Shown: piece after piece, positions 20,161-37,835 of the stretch | Layout of the letters: every line of letters starts with the position of its first letter | Position numbering within the stretch: the first letter of the stretch is position 1 | From: a virus | Lineage: Duplodnaviria > Caudoviricetes | Reading direction: 5' to 3' (one strand) | Length of the DNA: 55,252 nt | Virus record (IMG/VR): IMGVR_UViG_3300037258_000366 | Span: 1-55,252 of that record | Made by a program: the position numbers and the translations under genes | Notes under the pieces: model-generated | What the model was told of the DNA's origin: nothing | Database searches by the model: none | The model's input: the letters and a program-made list of their open reading frames with translations, nothing else

Positions 20161-21759
20161 CTAGTCTTCCCAGGGCCAGCGAGCCTCTCTGCCGCGCTCT
20201 ATCAGCGGAATCATGCTGAATGTCGCATCGGACAAACCGCCCAGTTCATGCCTTGTCCCGACACCCGAAGGCATCATCGACTTGGAATAACCGCCAAGAT
20301 TGAATCCGTATAGATAAGTGTTCTTAGGAACAACATTATCTACTGATCCATGCCAGTCAAAGAAAGCCTGGCCATCTGTGAAAATAACTACCCTCTTTGC
20401 ATCCGCTCCAAGAGTACGACGCACTGAAGCTACTGTCTGAGTACCGTAGCCAACTTCACCATTTCTGCTGTAGAAGTGTGCTACTGCCTTAAGGACAGAA
20501 GAACCAGTTGGTATTACATACTCAAATACACCGTCAGCGTACCCGAACAATCTCACTCTTCCCTGATTCTTCCTGGCAAGAGCTACACCGAACAATCCGG
20601 CAGCCTCATGACAAGCCAGTTTGCTCTTGTCAGAAACGCGAGACTGCATGGAACCAGAAGTATCCACATAAATATAGGTTATTCCTGGCAACTCTGGGAT
20701 ATTCTGGGTTGAGTAATCAAGCGCCTTCTCCAGAGCCTTGCCGTAGTTAAGGCTGTTCAGTTCCTTGTAGGCAGAAACAAACCTGAAAGGGAACTGTCTT
20801 GACTTAGCCACGATCTCCGGGTTGGACAGCTTCTCGCAAACAGCCTCAACTGAAGCGTCAGAAATTCCCGCCTCATCGAAGTTACGAAGGTTTCTCAGAG
20901 TAGCCATATACCCCATTGAAGGTATCATAGCTTCCCATAGATCATCCTTAGGAACTCTTGATCCTGCCAGGGAAAGAGCATCTTCCCATGTCATTCCTGC
21001 TGCCTTCAGGTTCTCTGCGTCCAGAAGAGCCTCAGGATGATTTACTGCCTTCAGGCGAAGACCTTCATTAGCAGAAATCATAGGAAGCTGATGTCCAGAG
21101 CCTTCCCAGACATTATTGAATCTCCTGGCCTGAGAGAAACTGTAAACAGCAGCCTGATTCTCACCAACTGGTGATGCATGTACCATGTTCAGTACATCAG
21201 CGAATCTCCAGCCATGAGAAGCTGTGTCATACTTCAGCAGCGAATACTCGTTGTAGAGTCTTGCACATGCATCAGAAAGACCGCGCTTAACAGGCATTGG
21301 AAGAGGCTTGCCATACTTGGAAACCCAGTAAGCAAGAAACTCTCCTGGCTCATCCGCTCTCTGGCATACAGCCCTGATAAACTTCCTGTTCCATCCTTCG
21401 GTGCCCTGCATATTATCAGTCAGTCTTGCACGTACGGCAATTGCTGCTCCTGTGATAGAAGCAGTACGTATGTTTCCTGTACCACGCAGCCAGTTAAGGA
21501 ACCCAAGCATCCACTTAGGATCTTCTCTTGCTACAGCAGTAATCAGCTTCTCCCAGCGCACTTCTCTCTGGCTTGCTGACTCGTAGAAAGTCTGCTCACC
21601 GAAGAAATAGTTCACGCCCAGAAGGAATAGCTCGGACTTAGTCTCGCGGTCAAAAGCAATGCCACCCTCACAAGTGACTGAGCTTCCTGCTATTGACTTA
21701 ACTGGCGAGCGTCCTGCTGGTACTGTCCCTGGAGTGTTTAGCTTAGACATATTATTCAC
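20161..21759 (-). CDS. rsr: Ro60/Rsr-family TROVE domain protein with C-terminal vWA domain
   Basis: SELFLLGV..FFGEQTFYE, RADEPGE, MTWE, MGYMATLRNLRN, SRQFPFRF (TROVE); VDTSGSM and FTDGQ (MIDAS); Y-RNA-like array immediately upstream. Confidence 0.92.
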   Translation of the reverse strand: MNNMSKLNTPGTVPAGRSPVKSIAGSSVTCEGGIAFDRETKSELFLLGVNYFFGEQTFYESASQREVRWEKLITAVAREDPKWMLGFLNWLRGTGNIRTASITGAAIAVRARLTDNMQGTEGWNRKFIRAVCQRADEPGEFLAYWVSKYGKPLPMPVKRGLSDACARLYNEYSLLKYDTASHGWRFADVLNMVHASPVGENQAAVYSFSQARRFNNVWEGSGHQLPMISANEGLRLKAVNHPEALLDAENLKAAGMTWEDALSLAGSRVPKDDLWEAMIPSMGYMATLRNLRNFDEAGISDASVEAVCEKLSNPEIVAKSRQFPFRFVSAYKELNSLNYGKALEKALDYSTQNIPELPGITYIYVDTSGSMQSRVSDKSKLACHEAAGLFGVALARKNQGRVRLFGYADGVFEYVIPTGSSVLKAVAHFYSRNGEVGYGTQTVASVRRTLGADAKRVVIFTDGQAFFDWHGSVDNVVPKNTYLYGFNLGGYSKSMMPSGVGTRHELGGLSDATFSMIPLIERGREARWPWED

Positions 21760-21778
21760 ATCTCCTTACATAGAAAAA

Positions 21779-21870
21779 CCGCCTGAGGATAAGTCGTAAG
21801 TCAGTGTTTTTATCTGAACTGTTATTTAATATAACTATTAGAAGTAACTGACTAACCTCGCATCAGGCGG
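21779..21870 (-). ncRNA. Y-RNA-like gene A (Ro-binding stem, AU-rich payload)
   Basis: Terminal helix ccgcctga/tcaggcgg; motif GATGCG-N8-CAGTTACTTC; second helix agtcagt/actgact. Confidence 0.7.
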
Positions 21871-21882
21871 CGGTTAAAAATC

Positions 21883-21975
21883 ACCAGAGAACGAGGTGAG
21901 GACGGTTGGGGCCTTCTCGGACCCCTGATTGTGTTTCTTGGCGAGAAGAAGTATCCGTCACTCTTCACAACTGGT
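21883..21975 (-). ncRNA. Y-RNA-like gene B (two-hairpin payload)
   Basis: accag/ctggt; GTTGTG-N8-CGGATACTTC ... GTTCTCT; hairpins ttct/agaa and ggggtc/ggcccc. Confidence 0.7.
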
Positions 21976-21994
21976 TTTAAGTATTAAGTTTTAC

Positions 21995-22134
21995 GATGCT
22001 AGAGAATAATTCGGAAGCAGAAATTTTAGCGCTCTGCCGTTGAGCTACATCCCGAAGAAGCCGGGATGATAGGAGTCGAACCTATAACCTCTCGTTCCAT
22101 AGACGAAGTAACTGATTCCTGCACATCTAGCATC
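21995..22134 (-). ncRNA. YrlA-like Y RNA C carrying a complete circularly permuted tRNA domain
   Basis: gatgctag/ctagcatc; CAGTTACTTC; then anticodon-like arm, T arm atagg-TTCGACT-cctat, closed acceptor catcccg/cgggatg, D arm gctc-AACGGCA-gagc. Confidence 0.85.
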
Positions 22135-22145
22135 TTAAGTTTTTA

Positions 22146-22218
22146 AGGGCGCACTAAACCTTAGTGCTATACCGTCCGTTCCCAGGCAGCTATCAGGACT
22201 TGAACCTGAAATCTCCCT
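22146..22218 (-). ncRNA. Permuted tRNA-like element D without a Ro stem
   Basis: aggg...T arm tcagg-TTCAAGT-cctga, imperfect closed acceptor, D arm gcac-TAAGGTTTA-gtgc, g-ccct. Confidence 0.6.
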
Positions 22219-22225
22219 CGCTTGT

Positions 22226-22360
22226 GTACCAGAGAATCGTTTTGATCGCGGAGTTTGTATTCATAACCTCCGGGTTTTGAGCCCGGCGCTCTATTGTTGA
22301 GCTATAATCACTATTTTTGGTGTAATTAATGAAGTAACCGTGATCATTCACATCTAGTAC
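22226..22360 (-). ncRNA. Y-RNA-like gene E carrying a tRNA domain opened at the T-loop (anticodon CAA)
   Basis: gtactag/ctggtac; CGGTTACTTC; acceptor taattac-ACCAAAAATA-gtgatta, D arm, anticodon arm ccggg-CTCAAAA-cccgg, T stem atgaa/ttcat. Confidence 0.8.
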
Positions 22361-22363
22361 TAG

Positions 22364-22434
22364 AGGCACTTACTGGATTTGAACCAGCGTAAACGGTTTT
22401 GCAGACCGTCACCTTGCCACTCGGTCAAAGCGCC
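22364..22434 (-). tRNA. tRNA-Cys(GCA)
   Basis: acggt-CTGCAAA-accgt; U73. Confidence 0.92.
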
Positions 22435-22440
22435 ATATTT

Positions 22441-22547
22441 GTACTTGAGAATAAGATGAACTCCGGAATAGTGTGCCTTTACAGCATCTATTTCTAGATG
22501 CCTTGGAATCGAACCAAGAAGTAACCGTTGTTCTTCACATCAAGTAC
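22441..22547 (-). ncRNA. Y-RNA-like gene F (T arm plus closed acceptor minihelix)
   Basis: gtacttga/tcaagtac; CGGTTACTTC; cttgg-TTCGATT-ccaag; gcatcta-GAAA-tagatgc. Confidence 0.8.
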
Positions 22548-22550
22548 TAG

Positions 22551-22627
22551 TAGCGGTGGCCGGATTTGAACCGAGCGATCTCTTGCTTATGAGACAAGCG
22601 AGGACAACCGAACTCCTCTACACCGCA
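22551..22627 (-). tRNA. tRNA-Met(CAT), initiator-like 1:72 mismatch
   Basis: cttgt-CTCATAA-gcaag; U1:U72 mismatch, but lacks the three G-C anticodon-stem pairs of typical initiators. Confidence 0.85.
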
Positions 22628-22637
22628 CCGAAAGGAT

Positions 22638-22713
22638 AGAGAGCTAGAGAATAATTCGGGAACGGTGTCTATTCGCTGTAAGAAGTATCCGTACCCTGCA
22701 CAACTAGCACTCT
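22638..22713 (-). ncRNA. Y-RNA-like gene G (minimal, short payload)
   Basis: gctag/ctagc; GTTGTG-N7-CGGATACTTC ... TATTCTCT; gggtacgg/ccgttccc helix. Confidence 0.7.
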
Positions 22714-22747
22714 TTTTAAGGAGGAAAAATGATGCGCTTCCCTGATG

Positions 22748-22822
22748 TACCGCCTGCGGGAATCGAACCCGCGACAACCAGATTGAAAGTCTGGGCACCA
22801 ATACCATCATAGTAAAGGCGGC
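22748..22822 (-). tRNA. tRNA-Glu(TTC)
   Basis: ccaga-CTTTCAA-tctgg. Confidence 0.88.
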
Positions 22823-22884
22823 ATGTTGCCGATGAGATTGGAGCAGACTGTGCATGCATATCGATTCCCTCACCGGCAAGTACT

Positions 22885-22913
22885 ACTGTACCACAAGGCC
22901 GACTCTGTGTCAA
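22885..22913 (-). promoter_or_regulatory. Principal-sigma promoter for the tRNA/Y-RNA/Ro60 operon
   Basis: TTGACA-N17-TACAGT with TG extension. Confidence 0.8.
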
Positions 22914-22935: not shown

Positions 22936-23946
22936 CTAGCCCAGAACCAGAAGACGTGTGCCTTTTATAAGCTTGCGGTTAATACTAGTTGACTGCACGA
23001 AAATAGTGTAGTCTCTGTAGTCTTCTGGCTTAACATCAACCTTCTCATCAGGGAGACCGAGCAACTGCCTGGCATTTCCTGTGTATACTGTCCCAGTTGA
23101 GTTAACCATGATGGCTAGCTGCTTCTGCGGCTGAATTGTTTCCTTCTTCATTAGCTGATAATAGCCAGTTCCTACCTTGTAAGGCATTCCTAGCCTGTCT
23201 GTGAAGAAATCATCAATCCTTCCGTCTGCCATAACGTTCTGAAGCGAGTAAAGATAATTCGGCAGGGGTGTAAGACTGCCTATAATCTCTGAAACAGACA
23301 CTTTGCTGAGCTTGAACAGGCTTCTGGTGCCTCTTATACCCTTAGTTCTGTTGACCATGAAGGTTTCAGAGGTTCTTCTGATGGTTTCTCCTACTTCAGC
23401 GAGACCATCAGTAGCAGAAGTGTTCCATACTGCTATGTTTTCTGCGGGAAAACCGAACTTTTTGGCCTCATGAACCCCAATTTGGTCAGGAACAAAGCCT
23501 GCAAGGGTCCAGTGATCAGGCAAACCCGCAATTTCAGCCGCTAGCTTGCCTGGTTTGGCCCTGCTATCGTTTTCTTTGCCGTCCGTGAGCACATAAACGA
23601 GAAAGGAATGCTCCCCATACTTCTCTGGAGTCATCTTCAGGTCCGAAATAGCCAGTAAGGTAGCGTCTATGAGCGCTGTAGTGCCGTATGCTTTGTACAA
23701 TCCGGCAATGCTTGGCATTCTCAGAACGTCTTTGTCGTAAATCAGGCACTGGATATTGTCCGGGTAGTCAAATGTGTATACTGTTATCCGTGTTTCCTGA
23801 TCTAGCTCCTTAGATCTCTGTGCTAAGTACTTAATCTGATTGTCCGCCACCTTTACAACGTCATCGGTGCGGTAATACATGCTTCCTGAGCCGTCAAGAA
23901 CTAATACAATGTGATTAATGTAGTTCGGGATTGCCGTGCTTGTCAT
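22936..23946 (-). CDS. von Willebrand factor A (vWA) domain protein
   Basis: VLDGSGSM MIDAS, TALIDA, LTDGKEN. Confidence 0.85.
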   Translation of the reverse strand: MTSTAIPNYINHIVLVLDGSGSMYYRTDDVVKVADNQIKYLAQRSKELDQETRITVYTFDYPDNIQCLIYDKDVLRMPSIAGLYKAYGTTALIDATLLAISDLKMTPEKYGEHSFLVYVLTDGKENDSRAKPGKLAAEIAGLPDHWTLAGFVPDQIGVHEAKKFGFPAENIAVWNTSATDGLAEVGETIRRTSETFMVNRTKGIRGTRSLFKLSKVSVSEIIGSLTPLPNYLYSLQNVMADGRIDDFFTDRLGMPYKVGTGYYQLMKKETIQPQKQLAIMVNSTGTVYTGNARQLLGLPDEKVDVKPEDYRDYTIFVQSTSINRKLIKGTRLLVLG

Positions 23947-25757: not shown

Positions 25758-25770
25758 GAAACTCCTAAGG

Positions 25771-25843
25771 TAGCGCTACTGGGGGTCGAACCCAGACTGA
25801 AACCCTTTTAAGGGGTCGTCCTCTGCCATTGGGATACAGCGCC
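25771..25843 (-). tRNA. tRNA-Leu(TAA), short variable loop
   Basis: gaccc-CTTAAAA-gggtt. Confidence 0.88.
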
Positions 25844-25844
25844 G

Positions 25845-25918
25845 TGGCCTGCTTGGGATTTGAACCCAAACTGTACACTTTTTGAGAGTGTCTTCTCTGC
25901 CGATTGGAATACCAGGCC
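25845..25918 (-). tRNA. tRNA-Leu(CAA), short variable loop
   Basis: acact-CTCAAAA-agtgt. Confidence 0.88.
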
Positions 25919-26576: not shown

Positions 26577-26600
26577 AATCTCCCTTTCTTATAGAACTCG

Positions 26601-26674
26601 TACCTATAGAGGGATTCGAACCCATCACTGTCATGTTCCTAAGACATGTGCCTCTGCCGTTGGGCTATATAGGT
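26601..26674 (-). tRNA. tRNA-Leu(TAG), short variable loop
   Basis: catgt-CTTAGGA-acatg. Confidence 0.88.
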
Positions 26675-27497: not shown

Positions 27498-28010
27498 TCA
27501 GTATTCTACCATAGTAGCGAAATGCTGTCTAGCTATCTCTATGTGTTCTGGCTGGAGTCCATTATTTGGATGGACCTTGATGTGCTTCACGATTTTTCTT
27601 CCTTTCGGGCCTAACCAGTAGTCTATTCCTGGTTCATCATCAAACCAGACCGATCCTGTGACTCCCCATTGCTTACAATGGTCTATAACTCCCCTGGATT
27701 TCACTTCAGACACTGATTGTTCGCGTGTGTAAGGCTCAAAATGCACTACAGGAAGCTTTGGGAGACCAATTTTGGCGCCAATCTCTGCGTCTGCATCATC
27801 TTGCCATGTCGTTGCCCATGCCAAATTGGCTCCAGTTGAGGCAGATAGCCCTAAAAGCCACTTTGCATGTTCTTTATTGAGTGTCAGAGAGTAAAATATT
27901 CCATCGTACTCAGATTTACTCGATTTTCCCTTAGCCGGAAAGTAATCCGGCCCTGGATTGGAACCTAAAGCGTTGAGTACGCCGTCTACATCAATAAATA
28001 TGTATCTCAT
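27498..28010 (-). CDS. HAD-superfamily phosphatase (RNA-repair-associated type)
   Basis: IDVDGVLN, WATTW and WFDDE motifs. Confidence 0.8.
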   Translation of the reverse strand: MRYIFIDVDGVLNALGSNPGPDYFPAKGKSSKSEYDGIFYSLTLNKEHAKWLLGLSASTGANLAWATTWQDDADAEIGAKIGLPKLPVVHFEPYTREQSVSEVKSRGVIDHCKQWGVTGSVWFDDEPGIDYWLGPKGRKIVKHIKVHPNNGLQPEHIEIARQHFATMVEY

Positions 28011-28772: not shown

Positions 28773-28849
28773 TGGTTGGCCGTGCTGGACTTGAACCAGC
28801 GATCTTTCGTTTATAAGACGCCTGCATTAACCAACTATGCTAACGGCCA
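28773..28849 (-). tRNA. tRNA-Ile(TAT), CCA encoded
   Basis: cgt-CTTATAA-acg (upper anticodon stem mismatched); canonical D and T arms. Confidence 0.8.
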
Positions 28850-31835: not shown

Positions 31836-32420
31836 TTAACTTGTGTTCTCATCGATCAACTCCAGTATCGTATTAATCTCTACTGGCATAAGATTCCATG
31901 CATCCAGTCCTACGTGTACCTGAAGAGTATTCACTCCAGCGAAAGAAATTATCTCATCTGAATGCGTGTGACCATGCAGAAGTGTGTTGCCAAAATTCTT
32001 CAGGCGGCATTCATCGTATCTGTCGTCTGCGGAATGATCTCCTGTGTACGGGAAATGGGATAGCATCACTGTTTTGTGATTCATCTTTCTTCGCGCAAAA
32101 TCATTTGCGGCCATGACTCCCATATAATAATACTCGTCTCCATACTTGTACGCGTCTCTGTTGAATCCCCACCCGTAATCATGGTTACCCCAGATGACAT
32201 ACTTGTTCCCGTTCAGCCTGGAAAACAGGTGACCGAATACTGCTGGCTTCTTCAGAGACAGATCACCAAGAATCCACAGAGCATCGTCTTTTTTCACGCA
32301 GCTATTTATGTTTTCTATAAGTGCTTCGTCGTGTTCTTCGATACCTGAGAATCCCCTGATATCTTCAGCCAGCATTTTGTGCATGAAATGAAGATCTGAG
32401 GTAAACCATGCAGTGCTCAT
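31836..32420 (-). CDS. Calcineurin-like metallophosphoesterase
   Basis: SDLH, LGD, GNHD, SHFP and HGHTH motifs. Confidence 0.9.
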   Translation of the reverse strand: MSTAWFTSDLHFMHKMLAEDIRGFSGIEEHDEALIENINSCVKKDDALWILGDLSLKKPAVFGHLFSRLNGNKYVIWGNHDYGWGFNRDAYKYGDEYYYMGVMAANDFARRKMNHKTVMLSHFPYTGDHSADDRYDECRLKNFGNTLLHGHTHSDEIISFAGVNTLQVHVGLDAWNLMPVEINTILELIDENTS

Positions 32421-36921: not shown

Positions 36922-37083
36922 TTAACTACGGCATGCTCTGAGACCTTCTTCCGCTGCGTGTGATATCTCATCTAGCGCATCTAAAAGTTCTTCTCTTTCA
37001 TCTTCAGTGATCTCAGCGTCGTTTATCTCATCAAGCATATCTTCCGATAAATCTAAAATATACCTGAAATCATCTTTTAACAT
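36922..37083 (-). CDS. Small acidic protein
   Basis: MLKDDF...; GGAG SD; TAATG coupling to the upstream gene. Confidence 0.55.
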   Translation of the reverse strand: MLKDDFRYILDLSEDMLDEINDAEITEDEREELLDALDEISHAAEEGLRACRS

Positions 37084-37835
37084 TATTCTCCATAGACCCA
37101 CTCCATTGTTTCTGTGTCCAGTATCCCCCAGTTTCCAGGACATCCATCACAGTTAAATCCGTTAACCCTTACCGGGCCATACCCAAAATCATATACGTCT
37201 TCCAGAGCCATGTGCTCATGACCATGCATCAGGAATGCTGGCTTTACATGATCAACAATGTCCTGCAGTTTTTCCATGTGAGCTTGTGATATGGCAAGAT
37301 CTTTGTCTGGCCAGTTTGAGTGCGGGAAAGTAATAGGAGCTTTAGACGGCCTGTCATGAGTCAGCATTACATCAGCATGACCACCTGCAATAGCGTAATC
37401 TCTCTGCTCATCTGTGATCAGTTCCTCAGGAAACCAGGACACATTTTCCTCGCGGTAAGATTTATCAACAGACGCTGCTCCTCCCATGATCAGCCAGACT
37501 TTACCGTCAAGAGTAAACCGGTAACCTCTTCTCATCCAGTAGATGTGATCGGATATAGTTACCAGCATATTACAGTCATTCTCTGCCTGCTTTATAAGCA
37601 GCTTGTGATTTTCATGATTACCGTCCAGAAATTGTAACTCCGCGTCGTTCTCAGCAAGAATCTTCTCCAGCCGTACTCTGTATCCCTTCCCAAACTTCCC
37701 CGGCCAGTACCCAAAATCCCCTAGATGGTAAATGACACGGAATGGCTGATCTTCTAGCTGAGCCGCGATTTTGGGTACTGTGATTTCTGCCCAGTAAGCG
37801 TTTCCGTGCCAGTCACCTGCAATCGCGACCTTCAT
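37083..37835 (-). CDS. Calcineurin-like metallophosphoesterase
   Basis: GDWHGN, GDFG, DGNHEN, THD and HGHEH motifs. Confidence 0.9.
   Translation of the reverse strand: MKVAIAGDWHGNAYWAEITVPKIAAQLEDQPFRVIYHLGDFGYWPGKFGKGYRVRLEKILAENDAELQFLDGNHENHKLLIKQAENDCNMLVTISDHIYWMRRGYRFTLDGKVWLIMGGAASVDKSYREENVSWFPEELITDEQRDYAIAGGHADVMLTHDRPSKAPITFPHSNWPDKDLAISQAHMEKLQDIVDHVKPAFLMHGHEHMALEDVYDFGYGPVRVNGFNCDGCPGNWGILDTETMEWVYGE

Follow-up and report, generated by a model that had tools for sequence, protein, structure and literature searches.

A phage Y-RNA-like gene with a probable tRNA-derived four-way junction in a layout distinct from YrlA and Yrn1

The window analyzed here is the whole 55,252-nt stretch of record IMGVR_UViG_3300037258_000366, a 55-kb fragment (48% complete by CheckV) assigned to the Caudoviricetes, from a soil phage. 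Six Y-RNA-like genes (Y0–Y5), interspersed with tRNA genes, lie immediately upstream of the phage rsr gene:

22885–22913, minus strand: sigma-70-like promoter match upstream of the tRNA/Y RNA array (10 of 12, with TG; a consensus match alone)
22638–22710, minus strand: Y0, short Y-RNA paralogue
22438–22548, minus strand: Y1, Y-RNA paralogue with a T arm, a closed acceptor hairpin and a degenerate D arm
22363–22434, minus strand: tRNA-Cys, directly 5′ of Y2
22226–22360, minus strand: Y2, the Y-RNA-like gene considered here; its terminal stem pairs 22360 with 22226
21993–22133, minus strand: Y3, canonical YrlA-type paralogue (V hairpin, T arm, closed acceptor, D arm; YrlA model score 29.8 bits)
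21878–21977, minus strand: Y4, Y-RNA paralogue
21776–21872, minus strand: Y5, Y-RNA paralogue just before rsr
20161–21759, minus strand: Rsr/Ro60 homologue (TROVE and vWA domains), with a likely true start at the ATG at 21750

The TROVE domain of the Rsr reading frame scores 69.6 bits, and the best named relatives of this protein are encoded by actinophage “Ro-like RNA binding protein” genes (~42% identity). All six Y RNA scaffolds have a 5′ YYAGNUGUG...UACUUC strand and a 3′ UUCUCURG strand in common. The island also encodes a protein with a HAD_SAK_2 domain (Pfam “Swiss Army Knife RNA repair proteins”) and two metallophosphoesterases. Only one of the window's 30 tRNA genes encodes its CCA.

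Read from its 5′ end, Y2 contains on the minus strand every element listed in the preliminary description of this locus, each in its place; the tRNA-like module is numbered here by the standard tRNA convention:

22338–22360, minus strand: 5′ scaffold strand (terminal stem and presumed Rsr-binding helix), containing GAUGUGA
22334–22337, minus strand: UUAC, an instance of the YUAY motif of YrlA-type RNAs (motif as given in the available text of Chen 2014)
22329–22333, minus strand: UUCAU, proposed 3′ strand of a T stem
22322–22328, minus strand: UAAUUAC, acceptor 3′ strand
22318–22321, minus strand: ACCA (discriminator A plus CCA), opening the acceptor loop
22312–22317, minus strand: AAAAUA, spacer completing the acceptor loop, shortened by 4 nt in a soil-metagenome variant
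22305–22311, minus strand: GUGAUUA, acceptor 5′ strand; G3 pairs with U70
22303–22304, minus strand: UA (U8 A9)
22288–22302, minus strand: D arm (GCUC/AACAAUA/GAGC), its loop without G18 G19
22287, minus strand: G26
22270–22286, minus strand: anticodon-like arm (CCGGG/CUCAAAA/CCCGG), with CAA at 22279–22277
22265–22269, minus strand: AGGUU variable loop, placing U48 opposite A15
22260–22264, minus strand: AUGAA, proposed 5′ strand of a T stem
22252–22259, minus strand: UACAAACU, internal loop, aligning with the T loop and 3′ T stem of relatives
22226–22251, minus strand: 3′ scaffold strand, CCGCGAUC...UUCUCUGGUAC

As drawn, the module has the helix lengths (7, 4, 5, and 5) and junction linkers (0, 2, 1, and 5 nt) of a class I tRNA. 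The acceptor stem consists of six Watson-Crick pairs and one G-U, and the nucleotides of the tRNA tertiary core are present: U8, A14, A21, G10-C25-G45, C13-G22-G46, G26-A44, and a 15-48 pair. The earlier picture of a cloverleaf module closed at its acceptor, with an internal ACCA and with the scaffold entering at the T-loop position, is borne out: the order is acceptor, D arm, anticodon arm, and variable loop, and there is no T hairpin. By its alignment, the UACAAACU segment may be a T-arm remnant. The loop CUCAAAA, which has the canonical U33 and A37, indeed recurs unchanged as the anticodon loop in the phage's tRNA-Leu(CAA) gene (25844–25918), although the two stems differ. None of the window's 30 tRNAs could be recognized as a parent of the module.

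That Y2 is a Y-RNA-type gene, as had been proposed, agrees with its position (the rsr gene lies 466 nt downstream, on the same strand), with the paralogous scaffolds of its five neighbors, and with a full-length match of 22223–22360 to the Deinococcus_Y_RNA model (RF01053), which is weak (23.2 bits, E = 0.5, against a gathering score of 80). In that alignment the CCGGG hairpin is taken for the T arm; we reject this placement, since in relatives of Y2 the same hairpin is followed by AGGUC and then by the real T arm. The YrlA model (RF02553, gathering score 69 bits) found nothing on Y2 with E values of up to 10 allowed, and two features of YrlA-type RNAs are absent from it, a T arm 5′ of the closed acceptor and the D/T-loop elbow nucleotides (G18 G19). 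Neither a tRNA nor a tmRNA was called at Y2 by ARAGORN; for a tRNA, the acceptor would have to be open and a T loop present, while that of Y2 is closed and the T loop is missing.

Folds were computed on 22223–22360, which includes 3 nt beyond 22226. The minimum free energy (MFE) structure, at -37.8 kcal/mol (z = -4.53; none of 200 shuffles was equally stable), includes the long terminal stem, the acceptor hairpin, the D arm, and the anticodon-like arm. Pair probabilities are 0.63–0.73 for the acceptor and above 0.97 for the D and anticodon arms. The long terminal stem predicted for Y2 also covaries among paralogues and relatives, and the GAUGUGA string of its 5′ strand recurs at the 5′ end of Mycobacterium smegmatis YrlA, as judged from the primer text of Chen (2014). 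The Rsr motif in the available text of the same paper, GNCGAAN0-1G, has no exact match in Y2.

Relatives of Y2 were found by a pattern scan and with a model designated R2. Nine further elements within the same scaffold were recovered from other viral or metagenome contigs (L015, L018, L023, L030, L061, L077, L252, L257, and L264). Y2, which is in the R2 training set, scores 75.7 bits, other training members score 73.5–81.4, and the new finds 43.8–62.2. Their common layout, to which Y2 conforms, is acceptor 3′ strand, NCCA, spacer, acceptor 5′ strand, UA, D arm, one nucleotide of any kind, a stem of at least 5 bp, and AGGUY. A complete T arm follows the variable loop in all nine relatives and is absent in Y2; in the relatives, the point of attachment to the scaffold lies between T stem and acceptor 3′ strand. 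An Rsr gene lies within about 1.3 kb in five of the six loci tested. Two of the relatives are called as tRNA genes by ARAGORN.

The pairings of the module are conserved across this group. Across five members, every one of the 16 pairs is standard in every cell, and both sides have changed in 10 of them, which none of 500 shuffles equaled; the acceptor and anticodon stems are among those that covary. RNAalifold, applied to seven full-length members, independently yields the scaffold, the closed acceptor, the D arm, the anticodon stem, and the T arm, with compensatory changes in 27 of the 40 pairs of that structure. At position 15/48, Y2 and L264 have A15-U48, and six relatives have G15-C48. A canonical 7-nt anticodon loop occurs in just 3 of the 10 members, the others having 3-, 4-, 6-, or 12-nt loops or extended stems. 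NCCA stands at the start of the acceptor loop in 9 of the 10 elements, Y2 included, as against 1 of 27 ordinary YrlA-type hairpins preceded by a T arm in the same loci; L023 and L030 came from a pattern requiring CCA, which biases this count, and without them it is 7 of 8. It was in register in six of seven elements in a first comparison, and then in all three later finds.

Within this group Y2 is singular. Among 36 closed-acceptor elements it is the only one whose D loop (AACAAUA) lacks GG and the only one without a T loop. No second T-loop-less copy was found with R2 in 158 sources (not de-duplicated) or in 71 loci with R1, a model built from Y2 alone; the exact Y2 D-arm pattern had no other copy in IMG/VR, and Rsr-based scans, one of which kept 80 of 486 IMG/VR contigs with rsr, returned no relative closer than ~52% over the full length. 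The one orthologue found for covariation is on a soil DNA contig that matches 22231–22900, its sole difference within Y2 being a 4-nt deletion in the acceptor loop; this is placed at 22316 and may take one C of the CCA instead of spacer As. Six rsr loci of cultured actinophages held no convincing relative, their best R2 matches (43.6 bits or less) falling on annotated tRNA genes, and these were left out of the counts, as was a loose structure scan on account of its noise. A pattern scan of bacterial genomes gave 103 matches, none of them true; the two with a complementary upstream strand proved to be normal tRNAs, each having a 3′ strand of its own.

The T stem is open to another reading. Both UUCAU and AUGAA are present, as the preliminary description had it, and they stand exactly where tRNA geometry requires them, one abutting the acceptor 3′ strand (0 nt apart), the other right after the 5-nt variable loop (we estimate the chance of such a placement at a few in a thousand; this was not computed by a tool). 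Their pairing (four A-U and one G-C) is supported by one sequence and is outside the MFE structure: the full fold proposed earlier comes to -37.4, 0.4 kcal/mol costlier and in effect a tie, and the T stem has a pair probability of 0.21–0.28, against 0.39–0.53 for a competing local hairpin at 22268–22252. It is thus conceivable, if rather unlikely, that there is no long-range T stem, that the segment after the anticodon arm forms a weak local hairpin (a decayed T arm), and that UUACUUCAU is single-stranded, with the Y RNA, closed acceptor, D, and anticodon arms unchanged. This alternative has the MFE on its side, and AUGAAUACAAACUCC sits in the T-arm columns of the relatives in the family alignment. 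However, the local hairpin would sequester the GGUU of the AGGUY variable loop, which is conserved in 10 of 10 members and whose last base covaries with D-loop position 15.

Other readings concern the whole element. Y2 might be a decaying, functionless duplicate of a T-arm-bearing member that has lost the T loop and the D-loop GG; it is the only such copy across the loci searched, and the D arm is likewise gone from the neighboring paralogue Y1. We consider this distinctly improbable, as the four helices, U8, A9, G26, AGGUU, ACCA, and the entire scaffold are intact, the losses are coordinated (the T loop together with its GG partners) and not scattered, and a second soil population has Y2 unchanged save for the loop indel. 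The earlier proposal of a decoy, in which the intact anticodon arm would draw off a host anticodon nuclease targeting tRNA-Leu(CAA), fares worse in the comparison. While CUCAAAA is canonical and the same as the loop of the phage tRNA, and the HAD_SAK_2 protein and two metallophosphoesterases are encoded on the island, the scarcity of canonical 7-nt loops among the ten members indicates that conservation in the family does not center on the loop; the two RNAs have different stems, no nuclease is known at the locus, and by our estimate an identical loop would turn up by chance among 30 tRNAs a few percent of the time. We give the decoy very little credence. Less credible still is that an Rfam tRNA match at 22185–22311 is real, namely a tRNA gene with a 56-nt insert, to which Y2 would contribute the 5′ acceptor strand and the D and anticodon arms, and the next module the T arm and 3′ strand. 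This match is above threshold (40.4 bits, gathering score 29), and six of its seven acceptor pairs are possible, three being G-U. Against it, the local acceptor partner forms six Watson-Crick pairs and one G-U and carries the ACCA, nine relatives have a closed acceptor in a Y scaffold with a T arm of their own, ARAGORN makes no call, and the T arm used is part of a separate, self-contained T-acceptor-D module.

The reading we prefer, with a probability of about 0.7, is that Y2 is an Rsr-tethered tRNA mimic, a phage Y RNA with a tRNA-derived four-way junction in a permutation unreported for YrlA and Yrn1. Y2 is probably a partner of the phage Ro60-like protein, binding to Rsr being suggested by its position and its paralogy. 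It would be co-transcribed with the neighboring tRNAs and freed by their processing, with 3′ processing of tRNA-Cys setting its 5′ end. The long terminal stem would serve as the scaffold for Rsr. If the 5′ T-stem strand pairs with the bases just 5′ of the acceptor, a single long rod, lacking a tRNA elbow, would run from the acceptor through the T-like stem into the scaffold. Bound by its scaffold, Y2 could then offer an acceptor/CCA-type tRNA mimic to a tRNA-binding partner, for which PNPase or a tRNA end-processing or repair enzyme are candidates; complexes of Ro, Y RNA, and PNPase are known. By analogy with M. smegmatis YrlA, RNase P possibly opens the acceptor loop. If so, the cut would probably fall 5′ of G 22311, and trimming back to ACCA would leave the RNA nicked into two pieces, its CCA end free. 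Cutting after CCA, as the preliminary description had envisaged, is plausible given the NCCA of 9 of the 10 members, and this strong retention of NCCA makes opening of the loop by RNase P a concrete proposal. In M. smegmatis, as described in the available text of Chen (2014), YrlA (with a 7-bp acceptor) is cut by RNase P and gains CCA, and both halves remain bound to Rsr.

A bolder extension, to which we attach only a slight chance, is that the ten elements are “tRNAs on a leash”, in which opening of the NCCA loop by RNase P and 3′ trimming leaves a two-piece RNA, its tRNA body held with the CCA end free on the Ro ring, and that the elbow-less rod of Y2, with its G3:U70, A73, and CCA, is alanylated or at least bound by alanyl-tRNA synthetase (AlaRS), the CCA-adding enzyme, or a defense nuclease. 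Together, G3:U70, A73, and CCA make up the minimal identity set for AlaRS, one that tmRNA and Ala minihelices also carry; because the Y2 rod has them, it could be alanylated or bound by the enzyme. If this were true, the phage would have in Y2 a sensor, decoy, or protected end coupled to Ro while the host attacks tRNAs.

YrlA and Yrn1 are the two known layouts in which bacterial Y RNAs mimic tRNAs. Y2 and its nine relatives represent a third, in which a near-whole tRNA lies inside a Ro scaffold, its order permuted around a closed acceptor and its parts including an encoded NCCA and an anticodon arm. Where the acceptor 3′ strand, NCCA, spacer, and acceptor 5′ strand meet, the sequence looks like the frozen boundary of two tandem tRNAs, a likeness of direct relevance to the published hypothesis, cited in the Wang 2018 preprint (available text), of an origin of Y RNAs from dimeric tRNA transcripts. 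Since the elbow and its D-loop partners were lost together, the T-loop-less Y2 is also a natural experiment on what such a module needs. On the practical side, elements of this kind can be read as tRNA genes by ARAGORN and Rfam, so that counts of phage tRNAs near rsr can be inflated.

The preliminary description had called Y2 a new permutation class. Its layout was indeed not found described in the parts consulted of the literature searched on bacterial and phage Y RNAs, but Y2 does not stand alone, being the T-loop-less member of a phage group with nine others. The phage YrlAs of Chen (2014; Supplemental Fig. S1 and Table S2) may include related elements. According to its available text, that study dropped YrlA matches overlapping tandem tRNA genes, a filter that might have removed elements like Y2.

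YrlA (RF02553) resembles Y2 in its adjacency to rsr, its scaffold stem, loop-closed acceptor, YUAY motif, D arm after UA, and alternation of A15:U48 with G15:C48. It differs in its order (V, T arm, acceptor, D arm) and in that the scaffold replaces the anticodon stem. Published YrlA keeps its T arm, as the preliminary description stated, and is without an anticodon loop and CCA end (Chen 2014; Wang 2018 preprint; available text of both); where YrlA lacks a complete encoded CCA by the account of the preprint, Y2 encodes the whole ACCA, and its T loop is missing. Yrn1 of Deinococcus radiodurans (RF01053) shares with Y2 a CUUC motif with a distal GAA closing the helix, and a 5-bp hairpin resembling an anticodon arm; unlike Y2, in the description available from Chen (2014), it has a T arm, a vestigial D arm, and a 6-nt “anticodon” loop, with no closed acceptor hairpin or CCA.

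Permuted genes offer a further parallel. Permuted tRNA and tmRNA precursors mature into working RNAs, whereas Y2 is without a T loop and sits inside a Ro scaffold. Two-piece (permuted) tmRNA genes likewise encode the CCA-bearing acceptor 3′ strand upstream of the 5′ strand, and there too the loop in between must be removed before the ends are free. In the algal case the circular intermediate is made by a splicing endonuclease that is not known in bacteria. The red-algal circularly permuted tRNA genes have, like Y2, the CCA-bearing acceptor 3′ strand upstream of the 5′ strand, with an intervening loop that must be excised (Wang 2018 preprint, available text). The b7a-tRNA of the same preprint is, like Y2, a near-complete tRNA look-alike, predicted at RNA-repair loci (RtcB/Band-7) and sometimes near Rsr; in the text available, by whose description alone we set it apart, it is a free-standing tRNA-like gene with no Y scaffold.

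The nearest comparison remains that with the nine phage relatives. They have the scaffold motifs of Y2 and its series from the acceptor 3′ strand and NCCA through the spacer, acceptor 5′ strand, UA, D arm, single nucleotide, and anticodon stem to AGGUY; unlike Y2, they retain GG in the D loop and possess an entire T arm, whose loop is of the UUCGA type, and their scaffold is joined after that arm.

The elements listed in the preliminary description of Y2, the Y-RNA-like element under study, are all present at 22360-22226 on the minus strand.

Features of Y2 (read from the sequence, in transcript order) and of its surroundings
5' end of Y2, minus: 5' scaffold strand (scaffold: the terminal stem, presumed to bind Rsr), ending UUAC
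22333-22329, minus: UUCAU
22328-22322, minus: UAAUUAC
22321-22318, minus: ACCA, followed by AAAAUA
22311-22305, minus: GUGAUUA, forming 7 bp with UAAUUAC, including G3:U70
3' of GUGAUUA, minus: UA, D arm GCUC/AACAAUA/GAGC, G
After the D arm and G, minus: CCGGG/CUCAAAA/CCCGG, then AGGUU
22264-22260, minus: AUGAA
After AUGAA, minus: 3' scaffold strand, pairing with the 5' end
22913-22885, minus: promoter-like site at the upstream end of the tRNA/Y RNA array
20161-21759, minus: ORF for Rsr (Ro60-like protein), with TROVE (69.6 bits) and vWA domains
27498-28010, 31836-32420, and 37083-37835, minus: HAD_SAK_2 protein and two calcineurin-like metallophosphoesterases, inside the tRNA island

Reading the closing helix as the T stem gives Y2 the helix lengths (7, 4, 5, and 5) and linkers (0, 2, 1, and 5) of a class I tRNA; rotating the arm labels in any other way gives no fit. 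The tRNA core is kept (U8, A9, G10-C25-G45, C13-G22-G46, G26-A44, and a 15-48 pair), and Y2 shares its loop CUCAAAA, base for base, with the anticodon arm of the phage tRNA-Leu(CAA). ARAGORN does not recognise Y2 as a tRNA. When folded, 22223-22360 reaches -37.8 kcal/mol (z = -4.53, with none of 200 shuffles as stable), the minimum free energy structure containing the scaffold, the acceptor hairpin, the D arm, and the anticodon-like arm; the complete fold proposed earlier comes to -37.4 kcal/mol. The T stem of Y2 is seen in one sequence and is predicted to be about as stable as a hairpin formed locally by 22268-22252 (pair probabilities of 0.21-0.28 vs. 0.39-0.53 for the hairpin).

The identification of Y2 as a Y RNA is supported by the scaffold common to all six Y elements of the array (mutually pairing 5' YYAGNUGUG...UACUUC and 3' ...UUCUCURG strands), with rsr lying downstream. 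In the window, a 55-kb fragment of an IMG/VR virus record, the order from the promoter-like site toward rsr is tRNA-Glu, Y0, tRNA-Met, Y1, tRNA-Cys, Y2, a free-standing T-acceptor-D module, Y3, Y4, and Y5. At ~42% identity, the Rsr ORF resembles genes annotated “Ro-like RNA binding protein” in Streptomyces, Gordonia, and Arthrobacter phages. A model built from Y2 alone matches Y1 (31.7 bits) and Y3 (22.9 bits), while the Rfam models give a weak full-length match of the Deinococcus Y RNA to Y2 (23.2 bits; gathering score 80) and a partial match of YrlA on Y3 (29.8 bits; gathering score 69). The end of tRNA-Cys lies 3 nt ahead of Y2. The tRNA-Cys/Y2 (22360-22363) and tRNA-Met/Y1 (22547-22550) junctions, both on the minus strand, carry the same UAGUACU, pointing to duplication of a unit made of a tRNA and a Y RNA. 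Adjoining the promoter-like site on its upstream side is a 336-aa protein (22936-23946, minus) that matches vWA weakly and phrog_26613, a family without assigned function, strongly.

Relatives of Y2 were sought in several ways. Among loci retrieved by way of Rsr (19 viral, 50 metagenome, and 80 further viral), none exceeded ~52% across the full length. With a pattern derived from the module, 15 IMG/VR stretches were matched, four of them true relatives and the remainder tandem or intron-bearing tRNAs; R2, a covariance model built on the part common to the members and applied to 72, 6, and 80 sources, added L061, L077, L252, L257, and L264. In all nine relatives the module lies inside the same Y scaffold: it runs from the acceptor 3' strand through N-CCA (CACA in L077), a 3-8 nt spacer, the acceptor 5' strand, UA, a D arm, N, a 5-7 bp stem, and AGGUY to an entire T arm (loop of the UUCGA type), after which comes the 3' scaffold strand. 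Rsr is at most ~1.3 kb away in five of six loci tested. Bacterial genomes yielded no true case among 103 pattern matches, nor did six cultured actinophage rsr loci, and within the scan covered the layout looks phage-restricted.

Pairing is standard in all 80 pair cells of five members (16 pairs), with both sides changed in 10 of the 16, six of these among the seven acceptor pairs; neither the 500 shuffles nor any slid register came near this covariation. These five were picked for a complementary acceptor, so that this helix is partly selected, which the anticodon stem is not. RNAalifold on seven full-length members returned the whole architecture independently, with compensatory changes in 27 of 40 pairs. 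The proposal of a permuted tRNA within Y2 is supported. The “new class” of the preliminary description is toned down: Y2 is not a lone class but the odd member of a small new subgroup.

What makes it odd is the elbow. Of the ten members, Y2 alone lacks a T hairpin. Scanning for a closed 7-bp acceptor hairpin plus D arm gave 36 distinct elements, 35 with GG in the D loop, Y2 (AACAAUA) being the sole exception. Y2 has thus lost the T loop together with its D-loop partners and retained the tRNA core. Y2 has A15 and U48, as does L264; the six T-arm-bearing relatives in the 36-element table have G15 and C48. The segment AUGAA-UACAAAC-UCC falls on the relatives' T arm in the family alignment, which suggests that the T arm of Y2 decayed, its 5' strand re-pairing with UUCAU, next to the acceptor strand, and the rest, on the 3' side, turning into scaffold. 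This fits the original description of a tRNA opened at the T loop.

Two functional readings can be weighed against what the family conserves. An anticodon decoy, as first proposed for Y2, is not supported by the comparison: a canonical “anticodon” loop (7 nt, U33, purine at 37) occurs in only three of ten members (Y2, L018, and L023), the remainder having loops of 3, 4, 6, or 12 nt, or longer stems. The stem is retained and co-varying, the loop free; a free loop on a conserved stem speaks against an anticodon-specific role as the family function and for a role of the acceptor/CCA end. The acceptor loop opens with an in-register NCCA in nine of ten members (6/7 in the 36-element scan and 3/3 later finds), or 7/8 without two loci found by a CCA-containing pattern, and in just one of 27 ordinary T-arm-preceded YrlA-type hairpins from the same loci. 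That one (L030 5638-5682, minus) has a T arm, acceptor, and D arm, with the loop UCCAU. Nor is ACCA a local habit, since 29 of the 30 tRNA genes in the window (all minus strand) lack an encoded CCA, most stopping one C past the discriminator; the exception, tRNA-Ile(tat) at 28773-28849, has ACCA at its end. The G3:U70, A73, and CCA of Y2 match AlaRS identity rules; G3:U70 is found in just two of the 36 closed-acceptor hairpins, taken as chance level, and the match is therefore kept only as a bold reading.

By analogy with published Y RNAs, Y2 would be released from a tRNA/Y RNA co-transcript, bind phage Rsr through its scaffold, and offer a rod of acceptor and T stem, lacking the elbow but bearing D and anticodon arms, to a partner that binds tRNAs, its NCCA loop probably being nicked. 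Such opening is plausible given the precedent of M. smegmatis YrlA, for which Chen (2014) describes a 7-bp closed acceptor, RNase P cleavage in vitro and in vivo, a 5' half that gains CCA, and halves that both remain with Rsr. YrlA RNAs bind Rsr in published work, the Wang (2018) preprint gives their tRNA-like module an L-shaped fold, and host PNPase is bound by a phage Ro60 with its Y-like RNAs (NAR 2025, PMC12135203). The tRNA island encodes two metallophosphoesterases and a HAD_SAK_2 domain protein, which Pfam describes as the HAD domain of “Swiss Army Knife” RNA repair proteins; the subset of ORFs scanned included no RNA ligase. None of the sequencing runs listed for the Y2 sequence is of RNA. 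A soil DNA contig matches 22231-22900, its sole difference inside Y2 being a 4-nt deletion within the loop, placed at 22316, which may remove either spacer As or one C of CCA. This contig joins 22143 to 22231, skipping the 87 nt of the free-standing module; it may derive from a related phage, since the far side is only 30 nt and the remainder is unlike the window.

The free-standing tRNA-like module between Y2 and Y3 (22144-22230, minus) lacks its own Y scaffold and consists of a 5-bp closing stem and AGAUU, then a T arm (UCAGG/UUCAAGU/CCUGA), an acceptor hairpin that is closed and bulged, and finally UA and a D arm. An Rfam tRNA match at 22185-22311 (minus; 40.4 bits, above gathering score) was regarded as a chimera of the 5' two-thirds of the Y2 module (acceptor 5' strand, D and anticodon arms) and the next module's T arm. 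ARAGORN likewise labels relatives' modules as tRNA genes (L018 6863-6936, “Phe”; L015 3578-3655, “Gly”), and such readings can inflate the number of tRNAs counted close to rsr genes. The Y RNA arrays of the window, L015 (2700-3950), and L018 (6100-7060) hold many paralogues with tRNA-like modules cut or decayed at differing places: Y1 (22438-22548, minus) has a T arm and acceptor without a D arm; in L015 3700-3840 an anticodon-like arm comes after T, acceptor, and D; at L015 3196-3340 the variable arm is long, as in a class II tRNA; and several short Y RNAs carry nothing of a tRNA. A long variable arm is the norm for tRNA-Leu in bacteria; the taa, caa, and tag tRNA-Leu genes of the window (25769-25918 and 26600-26674, minus) are all 75 nt with a short variable region, its Ser and Tyr tRNAs retaining long arms (85-88 nt). 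Streptomyces phage Alone3 also lists Leu tRNAs of 74-75 nt.

No description of the layout turned up in the literature searched, which included passages of Chen (2014), where matches overlapping tandem tRNAs were discarded, and of Wang (2018). In its proposed working Y2 may be likened to a YrlA-type tRNA mimic, but it differs from YrlA in having no match to the model, no T arm, no elbow, and another arm order. It differs as well from Yrn1, which has a T arm but neither a closed acceptor nor CCA. The closest things to Y2 are its nine T-arm-bearing relatives; permuted tRNA and tmRNA genes come nearest as analogues of its closed acceptor with a CCA inside.
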